Virus genome (UHGV): UHGV-0335272
Origin: a virus
Reading direction: 5' to 3' (one strand)
DNA length: 51,506 bases
Under the pieces are notes generated by a model that saw nothing but the letters and a program-made list of their open reading frames with translations, did no database searches and was not told where the DNA came from. Shown here one piece after another: positions 32,623 to 33,713 of the stretch; position 1 is the first letter of the stretch; each line of letters begins with the position of its first letter. A program made the position numbers and the translations under genes.

Positions 32623-32630
32623 TATCTGCA

Positions 32631-32676
32631 ATCAGACTGGTGCGAGTTCTGTTTTTTTCGGGCCGGTCTGATTTTC
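32631..32676 (+). terminator. Hairpin plus T-run downstream of mor
   Basis: AATCAGACTGG ... CCGGTCTGATTTT imperfect inverted repeat with internal T7 run. Confidence 0.35.
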
Positions 32677-32699
32677 ACATACTGTAAGGTTATTGCATA

Positions 32700-32783
32700 T
32701 TCCATCCAGTCTCTTCCCATGTTGACCCAGTTCTTCCCATAATTATCTCACTTGTTCCCTGTCATTTATCTCAAGTCTAATCA
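32700..32783. repeat. Prophage terminal region with direct repeats (candidate transposase-binding sites) and terminal CA
   Basis: CCAGTCTCTTCCCAT and CCAGTTCTTCCCAT direct repeats; element ends ...TCAAGTCTAATCA, then pepT codons begin. Confidence 0.5.
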
Positions 32784-33713
32784 CGCGGCGGCGACATTGC
32801 GCTGGGCATTGGTGACGAAGTGCTCTCGCCCGTAATGTTCCCCGTGCTGCACCAGCTGCTGGGCCAGACGCTGATCACCACCGACGGGAAGACGCTGCTG
32901 GGGGCAGATGACAAGGCGGGTATCGCGGAGATCATGACGGCGCTGGCGGTGCTGAAGGGCAAAAACATCCCGCACGGGGATATCCGCGTGGCCTTTACGC
33001 CGGATGAAGAGGTCGGCAAGGGCGCGAAGCATTTCGACGTGGAAGCCTTTAACGCGCAGTGGGCCTATACCGTCGACGGCGGCGGCGTCGGTGAACTGGA
33101 GTATGAAAACTTCAATGCCGCGTCCGTCACGATCAAAATTGTCGGCAACAACGTTCATCCTGGCTCGGCGAAAGGCGTTATGGTGAACGCGCTGTCGCTG
33201 GCGTCCAGAATTCATGCAGAAGTCCCGGCGGAAGAGAGCCCTGAACAGACCGAAGGGTATGAAGGTTTCTATCACCTGACCAGCATCAAAGGCACCGTGG
33301 ACAGCGCGCAGATGCACTACATCATCCGCGATTTCGACCGCAAAGCCTTTGAGGCGCGCAAGCGCAAGATGATGGAGATCGCGAAGAAGGTCGGTAAAGG
33401 ATTACACCCAGATTGCTATATTGAGCTGATCATTGAAGACAGCTATTACAACATGCGCGAGAAGGTGATGGCGCATCCGCATATTCTCGATATTGCCCAG
33501 CAGGCGATGCGCGACTGCGATATTGAACCGCAGCTGAAGCCGATTCGCGGCGGCACCGACGGTTCTCAGCTGTCGTTTATGGGGCTGCCGTGCCCGAACC
33601 TGTTTACCGGTGGCTACAACTACCATGGCAAGCATGAGTTTGTGACGCTGGAAGGGATGGAAAAAGCGGTGAAGGTGATAGTACGGATAGCGGAGTTGAC
33701 CGCGAAGCGGTAA
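32784..33713 (+). pseudogene. pepT: Peptidase T, 5'-truncated by prophage insertion (3' ~300 codons present)
   Basis: Reading frame resumes at ...[25 protein letters not shown], matching internal PepT sequence; no upstream PepT N-terminus in window. Confidence 0.85.

Follow-up and report, generated by a model that had tools for sequence, protein, structure and literature searches.

Structure of the locus and its junction with pepT

The DNA under study is the viral sequence UHGV-0335272, a window of 51,506 bp, in which the region from 32,623 to 33,713 joins phage genes to a truncated host gene for peptidase T (pepT). On its left side, the early genes of a prophage end with those for a GemA-family protein and a Mor/C-family transcription activator. 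They are followed by a non-coding spacer with a hairpin and several short repeats, and on the right side by a pepT fragment (Table 1). We consider it nearly certain that a complete BcepMu-type transposable prophage of 35.3 kb borders on host pepT at 32783/32784 with its Mor-proximal end, and no sequence evidence contradicting the junction or the prophage was found.

The last phage base is 32783 (...CTCAAGTCTAATCA), and 32784 is the first base of pepT. The phage side up to 32783 reads ...TCAAGTCTAATCA, and the junction in its context in the window is ...CATTTATCTCAAGTCTAATCA/CGCGGCGGCGACATTGCGCTGGGC..., where the slash, here and below, marks the boundary between phage and host DNA. The frame that opens at 32784 continued for 310 codons to a stop at 33711–33713. 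In a blastn search of 32600–33720 against 5,426 complete Escherichia coli genomes, pepT was matched in essentially all of them, and its alignment started at query position 185, corresponding to window position 32784. The codons just 5' of this point, TAA (32778–32780) and TCA (32781–32783), belong to the phage. The initial annotation of this region, made without database searches, had pepT begin abruptly at about 32784, after a codon foreign to pepT and next to a phage end in CA. The first position proved to be exact, the preceding codons are indeed not those of pepT, and the phage end is correct to the base (32783).

The phage side of the boundary was located independently of pepT. Escherichia phage PhiKM and Phi06_2974B were collinear with the window through the terminal ...AATCA, and beyond it they continued into unrelated DNA. 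Among 80 IMG/VR loci collected with the Mor protein, 39 contained a recognisable copy of the Mor-side end. CA finished every complete Mor-side end listed among these 39 loci, and the 38 comparable loci, those with enough flank, showed 33 different 12-nt flanks. The divergence of the two phages past CA, together with the varied flanks of the IMG/VR loci, thus indicates that the phage terminus is the CA at 32782–32783. Ends of the form TG...CA are typical of BcepMu relatives (PMC2628397). The end region also matched 641 of the 5,426 complete E. coli genomes (~12%) at 90–97% identity, beside many different host genes.

Far end of the prophage, the uninterrupted gene, and the target duplication

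The window starts inside a tail-fibre gene, and the opposite prophage end was looked for within the window and is not there. An exact-protein look-up with the tail protein encoded at 497–1075 led to contig NODE_51 of the ENA assembly ERZ1743331 (hereafter L004). Its reverse complement matched window positions 1–11075 with 0 mismatches and provided 3,001 bp more beyond the window start. On this contig, pepT codons 1–100 were fused straight to 5'-TGATGCGCC..., and the far end of the phage lay 2,554 bp before window position 1, giving an element of 35,337 bp. The open reading frame (ORF) of 100 codons, MDKLLERFLQYVSLDTQSK...NPQIVENYRG, continues into 5'-TGATGCGCCGCGCGATAAATG... and is stopped by the terminal TGA of the phage.

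A genome-collection search with the reconstructed PepT of 407 amino acids as query identified an uninterrupted pepT in Enterobacter chuandaensis 090028, with 99% protein identity to the reconstructed protein. As the initial annotation had proposed, alignment to an uninterrupted gene of a related strain placed the junction to the base. In the three-way alignment, the intact gene reads TACCGCGGCGGTGAT (wider context ...GAAAACTACCGCGGCGGTGAT...), the left junction on L004 reads ...TACCGCGGC/TGATG (wider context ...GAAAATTACCGCGGC/TGATG...), and the right junction in the window reads ATCA/CGCGGCGGCGAC.... Comparison of the three sequences therefore indicates a simple insertion after pepT codon 100, accompanied by a 6-bp duplication of CGCGGC. 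The host was shown to be an Enterobacter close to E. chuandaensis.

The window starts in a tail-fibre gene at which several other assemblies also break, and it does not contain the opposite end. Both facts would also fit a misassembled junction or a prophage remnant in decay, with a border made uneven by deletion instead of being set by clean transposition. We regard such an origin as extremely improbable. ENA assemblies from different samples agreed with each other, L004 and L005 across the window start, and L004 and L006 at the far end, which in both is joined to pepT codons 1–100. The two halves of pepT add up exactly to an intact gene plus the 6-bp duplication, which bears out the earlier claim that the gene was split by insertion. 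In addition, the element has the length and gene set of the complete E. coli relatives, and the contig breaks are explained by an invertible tail-fibre segment with a Gin-like invertase.

Clean insertion was likewise observed in the relatives. Five full E. coli prophages of 34.5–37.6 kb, located in gadC, rlmC/rumB, the dsdA-dsdX region, gspL, and yehY, were compared, and all five had TG...CA ends and 6-bp duplications (CGTTGC, CTATGG, AATGTG, CCCAGG, and GCAGGG, respectively). With the pepT insertion included, the target duplication was 6 bp in six of six cases. A 5-bp duplication next to a left end CTGATG was also considered, as two left flanks end in C, and was excluded: the bases preceding TG in the six insertions are C, C, G, G, G, and G, the four with G being E. 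coli insertions. Transposases of the B3/Tn552 family are described as leaving a 6-bp duplication, compared with 5 bp for Mu (PMC8705779). No statement pairing BcepMu by name with 6 bp was found in the literature searched, outside of which the original description of BcepMu lies.

A separate observation concerns the choice of target. In 39 independent insertions (window 32784–32789, L090–L094, and the IMG/VR loci L098–L175), the targets showed a weak symmetric preference of about N-C-Y-R-G-N, with T and G preferred at positions 3 and 5, respectively, and no C at position 4, in a small sample and without statistics. This pattern recalls the preference N-Y-(G/C)-R-N of Mu.

Table 1. Coordinates of the prophage and pepT features in the window
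Feature	Position	Strand	Remarks
Prophage part within the window	1–32783	.	Full element 35,337 bp; based on ORF layout, L004 overlap, and synteny
P2-like tail, head, and lysis genes	~1–22000	-	Tail Pfam families on L004
Accessory/immunity region, low GC	~22000–25000		
Early genes	~25185–32622	+	Helix-turn-helix protein and DUF3102 protein first; DUF3164 and DUF2786 after the ATPase
DDE (rve) transposase	26415–28184	+	589 amino acids; BcepMu gp9/Tn552-related
AAA+ ATPase	28195–29352	+	Pfam AAA_22, E = 2.3e-20; position as BcepMu gp8 ("DNA transposition protein")
GemA-family protein	31769–32236	+	Pfam GemA, E = 6.4e-41
Mor/C-family transcription activator	32233–32622	+	Pfam Mor, E = 1e-42; last gene before the phage end
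Hairpin followed by UUUU	32630–32677	+	Arms 32630–32645 and 32658–32673; likely intrinsic terminator
Direct repeats CCAGTCTCTTCCCAT and CCAGTTCTTCCCAT	32706–32720 and 32727–32740	+	Mor-side end only
End-site 2 core GAGATAATT	32741–32749	-	Positions 35–43 from the tip; predicted transposase-binding repeat
End-site 1 core GAGATAAAT	32764–32772	-	Positions 12–20 from the tip; predicted transposase-binding repeat
Terminal ATCA	32780–32783	+	CA presumably forms the 3' end that is cleaved and transferred; inverted mate 5'-TGAT at the other end
Right copy of the 6-bp target-site duplication CGCGGC	32784–32789	+	pepT codons R99–G100
pepT 3' fragment	32784–33713	+	Codons 99–407 and stop; without a start codon of its own

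Affiliation and gene layout of the element

The gene content showed that the element, whose rve transposase is related to that of Tn552, belongs to the BcepMu type of transposable prophages and is not Mu proper. Its transposase was 67% identical over 581 amino acids to BcepMu gp9, annotated as "Tn552/IS1604 rve transposase," and matched the Pfam rve family with E = 1.5e-7, while the Mor protein was 53% identical to BcepMu gp1. Gene-for-gene synteny was observed with the E. coli relatives and with BcepMu (NC_005882, in opposite orientation), and the nearest named phage, PhiKM, has been assigned to the genus Bcepmuvirus. In a search of PDB sequences with the transposase at E <= 1, no similarity to MuA was detected, and only faint matches to the retroviral integrase core were obtained. 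The AAA+ ATPase encoded next to the transposase is annotated as ExeA family in the E. coli relatives (RefSeq); it is the probable target-binding partner in transposition and the counterpart of MuB.

The order of genes in BcepMu and in Enterobacteriaceae prophages such as PhiKM is that of the element: Mor and GemA lie at one tip, and the ATPase, the rve transposase, a divergent repressor, lysis genes, head, P2-like tail, and tail fibre follow in this order. Mu resembles the element in being a temperate, transposable myovirus of ~36 kb with TG...CA termini. It, too, has several sites for the transposase close to both ends, encodes homologues of Mor/C and GemA, and inactivates genes by inserting into them at many sites. 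However, the early, middle, and late genes of Mu are collinear on one strand, whereas the late genes of the element lie on the minus strand and the early genes on the plus strand, and the element has no detectable similarity to MuA. The Tn552/B3 transposase family has in common with the element an rve-type DDE transposase, a partner ATPase, and the 6-bp duplication, but the element is a complete phage and Tn552 a small transposon. Two gene layouts are named in the title of a 2018 work by Toussaint and Van Gijsegem, and the element has the one that B3 does not have.

These comparisons bear on the possibility of a true Mu-family (Muvirus) prophage, with a MuA-type transposase and a 5-bp duplication. 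The TG...CA ends, the Mor and GemA homologues, and the transposase/ATPase gene pair would all be found in such a phage. Nevertheless, this affiliation is hardly credible in view of the 6-bp duplication in all six insertions, a transposase close to BcepMu gp9 and without a MuA match in the PDB, early and late blocks that are divergent rather than collinear, and the assignment of the nearest named phage to Bcepmuvirus. Thus, the "Mu-type ends" of the initial annotation stand as far as the terminal CA is concerned but not in the strict meaning of the term, given the transposase, the divergent layout, and the length of the duplication.

Several points weigh against the assignment to the BcepMu type with its proposed mode of insertion. 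The score of the transposase against Pfam rve, 32.0 bits, lies just under the gathering cut-off of 32.6 bits, and the family assignment comes mainly from the homology with BcepMu gp9. Furthermore, the binding of the transposase to the GAGATAAAT repeats at the phage ends, the 6-bp staggered cut, and the terminator described below are suggested by the sequence and by related systems.

Two other parts of the element were noted. Between the divergent late and early modules, a patch at ~22000–25000 has a guanine-cytosine (GC) content of 0.43–0.47, compared with ~0.58 elsewhere. It contains genes for a Dam-type N6-adenine methylase (23082–23852, plus strand) and a CI-type repressor (24464–24874, minus strand), as well as small ORFs; at the same position, the E. 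coli relatives carry other cargo, e.g., a DUF2441 protein or an "ABC transporter ATPase." The second part lies at the far tip of the prophage, beyond window positions 1–496 (L004 10582–13551), where duplicated tail-fibre C-termini and assembly genes are found in opposite orientations together with a gene for a Gin-like resolvase/invertase. The Gin-like invertase and the duplicated tail-fibre ends constitute an invertible host-range segment. The public assemblies L005, L007, and L008 break at this segment, probably because of its inverted repeats. BcepMu differs from the element in this respect, as it carries an acyltransferase at the tip opposite Mor instead of the invertase and the invertible segment. 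The two phages also differ in host, Enterobacter for the element and Burkholderia for BcepMu, and in the length of the non-coding DNA that separates Mor from the tip, 161 bp in the element and about 364 bp in BcepMu.

Repeats at the prophage ends

Comparison of the two ends, both read inward, revealed that they have TGAT and two short cores in common, in the same register. The motif G[AC]GATA[AT][AT]T was found at positions 12 and 35 from both tips, with just two further copies in the 35.3 kb of the element. A repeat search likewise detected TTATCTCA twice, with a spacing of 23, at the two end-site cores. Over the first 60 nt, the two ends gave 29 matches, compared with 15.3 +/- 3.4 for random prophage windows (p about 1e-4). 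Moreover, the cores occupied the same positions in 10 ends, which comprised six diverged enterobacterial Mor-side variants, two far-end variants, and both ends of BcepMu. BcepMu and the element thus have in common the location of these cores, 12 and 35 from either tip, as well as the TG...CA ends and the many different insertion sites. This arrangement matches the 23-bp imperfect repeats described at the ends of BcepMu and phiE255 (PMC2920897). An ISME paper on Pasteurellaceae phages contained nothing on the ends. The GAGATAAAT-type cores are predicted to be transposase-binding repeats. In Tn552, each end carries two adjacent 23-bp repeats to which the transposase binds.

The initial annotation had proposed a comparison of the terminal 100 bp with the opposite end of the element. 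Inverted similarity does exist between the two ends, but the motif that they share is G[AC]GATA[AT][AT]T and not the pair of direct repeats, CCAGT(C)TCTTCCCAT, which had been put forward as possible transposase-binding sites about 50 to 80 bp inside the end. These repeats are present and actually lie 43–78 bp inside it, with an exact core, TCTTCCCAT, at 32712–32720 and 32732–32740 (spacing 20). It is improbable, however, that they serve the transposase of the element as binding sites. On the one hand, the inner copy abuts end-site 2, and the bases adjoining this site (TGGGA; TGGCA at other ends) are fairly conserved across ends. A ATGGGAAGAGA-like element is also kept at a similar distance in the diverged end variants L141 and L169, the neighbouring bases of which differ. 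On the other hand, no copy of the repeats with up to 2 errors was found at the far end and none at the ends of BcepMu, the sole other near-match in the prophage being internal and chance-like. In addition, 161 of 2,000 dinucleotide-preserving shuffles of 32623–32783 (8%) contained an exact direct repeat of 9 nt or more, so the 9-nt core is only weakly beyond chance. The motif that recurs in register at both ends and in BcepMu is GAGATAAAT and not TCTTCCCAT. Absence of matching repeats at the other end had been named in advance as an argument against the disruption of pepT; the far end has no TCTTCCCAT match, yet the junction is real.

A different role of the Mor-side repeats can be suggested only tentatively. 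The two TCTTCCCAT copies, which are absent from BcepMu, and runs of CCC (~32716, 32726, 32736, and 32756) might together form an accessory element specific to this end, with the consequence that the two ends would be functionally unequal. Possible roles of such an element include a third or accessory transposase site or a part of pac. If it does make the ends unequal, the asymmetry of attL and attR in Mu would be paralleled.

Proposed mechanism of insertion

By comparison with related systems, insertion into pepT may have proceeded as follows. The DDE transposase (rve, Tn552-related) would bind the two repeats spaced by 23 bp at each end, while the neighbouring AAA+ ATPase would help in target capture. 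The transposase would then attach both 3'-CA ends to phosphates of the target that are offset by 6 bp, and gap repair would produce the 6-bp duplication. The records of PhiKM and Phi06_2974B carry non-phage DNA past CA, which is consistent with replicative transposition and headful packaging that leaves host DNA on the virion ends. The insertion is an ordinary event caused by a member of a well-populated phage family that has already been described. Three features identify BcepMu-type prophages, which are common in Enterobacteriaceae: termini of the form TG...CA, a pair of GAGATAAAT-type repeats in each end (positions 12 and 35), and a duplication of 6 instead of 5 bp.

Probable terminator and outward promoter-like sites

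Eight bases after the mor stop codon, the spacer contains a hairpin with a predicted stability of -23.9 kcal/mol (z = -3.94), which was equalled in 1 of 200 shuffles. The hairpin and its U-run probably terminate the early/middle operon just inside the phage end. A scan of 32400–33000 for consensus terminators yielded nothing, probably because the hairpin loop exceeds the limit of the scan.

Sigma-70-like hexamer pairs directed toward the pepT fragment were also observed in the spacer, namely TTCACA-16-CATATT at 32674–32701 and TTCCCA-18-CATAAT at 32714–32743, both on the plus strand, the latter overlapping the TCTTCCCAT repeats. Three such plus-strand pairs were counted in 600 nt, compared with 0.4 expected from shuffles. 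They match the consensus only weakly. Candidate read-out transcription into the flanking host DNA is conceivable.

Consequences for pepT and the neighbouring genes

The pepT fragment in the window was 99% identical at the amino acid level to PepT of E. chuandaensis and 82% identical at the DNA level to pepT of E. coli. The ORF is not intact: it is split after codon 100, and its N-terminal part lies 35.3 kb away from the C-terminal part. An intact pepT N-terminus lying upstream in a different frame, which would speak against the disruption, was not found by tblastn in any frame of the window (best E = 1.5), which also holds no further pepT-like sequence. Both fragments are closed by stop codons supplied by the phage, TGA for the N-terminal and TAA for the C-terminal one. 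Since this TAA (32778–32780) is in frame and directly 5' of the C-terminal fragment, a fusion protein cannot arise by read-in from the phage. Thus, this copy of peptidase T is dead and consists of an N-terminal stub of 100 residues and a promoterless C-terminal fragment. Metal ligands of M20 peptidases come from both of the parts that are separated here, so that neither pepT fragment can be active. The host would thus lack intact peptidase T, provided that its genome carries no second copy.

Precise excision is not known for transposable prophages, and the disruption of pepT is therefore likely to be stable. Peptidase T is a dispensable tripeptidase in E. coli and Salmonella, and the biological consequence of the disruption should be small. 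Three minus-strand ORFs are found 3' of pepT, at 33757–34878, 34971–36434, and 36435–37109. From their translations, inspected by eye, we take them to be roxA/ycfD, phoQ, and phoP, respectively, and their sizes and order are those of these genes. As the roxA/ycfD-like gene lies on the opposite strand, polar effects of the insertion are unlikely. For the annotation of UHGV-0335272, the results fix the prophage boundary at 32783/32784 to the base, set the true size of the element at 35,337 bp, and make pepT a pseudogene in this strain.

Related copies and a second element in the window

The E. coli relatives occur in up to three copies per genome, with one copy located on a plasmid, and commonly split host genes (gadC, rlmC, gspL, and yehY). 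A related sequence was also observed in the record of Klebsiella phage KP12 clone KP12_2 (OM835952, L003), which is filed under Vequintavirinae: its GemA-Mor region and its invertase-side end were 92–95% identical to those of the element. This record has the appearance of a prophage contig that was co-assembled, not of a part of a Vequintavirinae genome. KP12 was unusable as a reference for the phage end, as it matches up to mor and then continues differently.

No transfer RNA (tRNA) gene was detected in the window by ARAGORN, and no Rfam family was found in the whole window. A second, unrelated prophage-like element occupies 37180–51506, right after the phoP-like gene, and its far boundary lies beyond the window. 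Since the window contains no tRNA gene, the attachment site of the second element here is not a tRNA. On the minus strand, this element encodes a tyrosine integrase with an Arm-binding domain (37180–38469). Its plus strand encodes a DnaD-like/HTH_36 protein (43530–44447), a DnaC/IstB-like ATPase (44450–45190), a DUF1627 protein, and a C-5 cytosine methylase (48874–50361).

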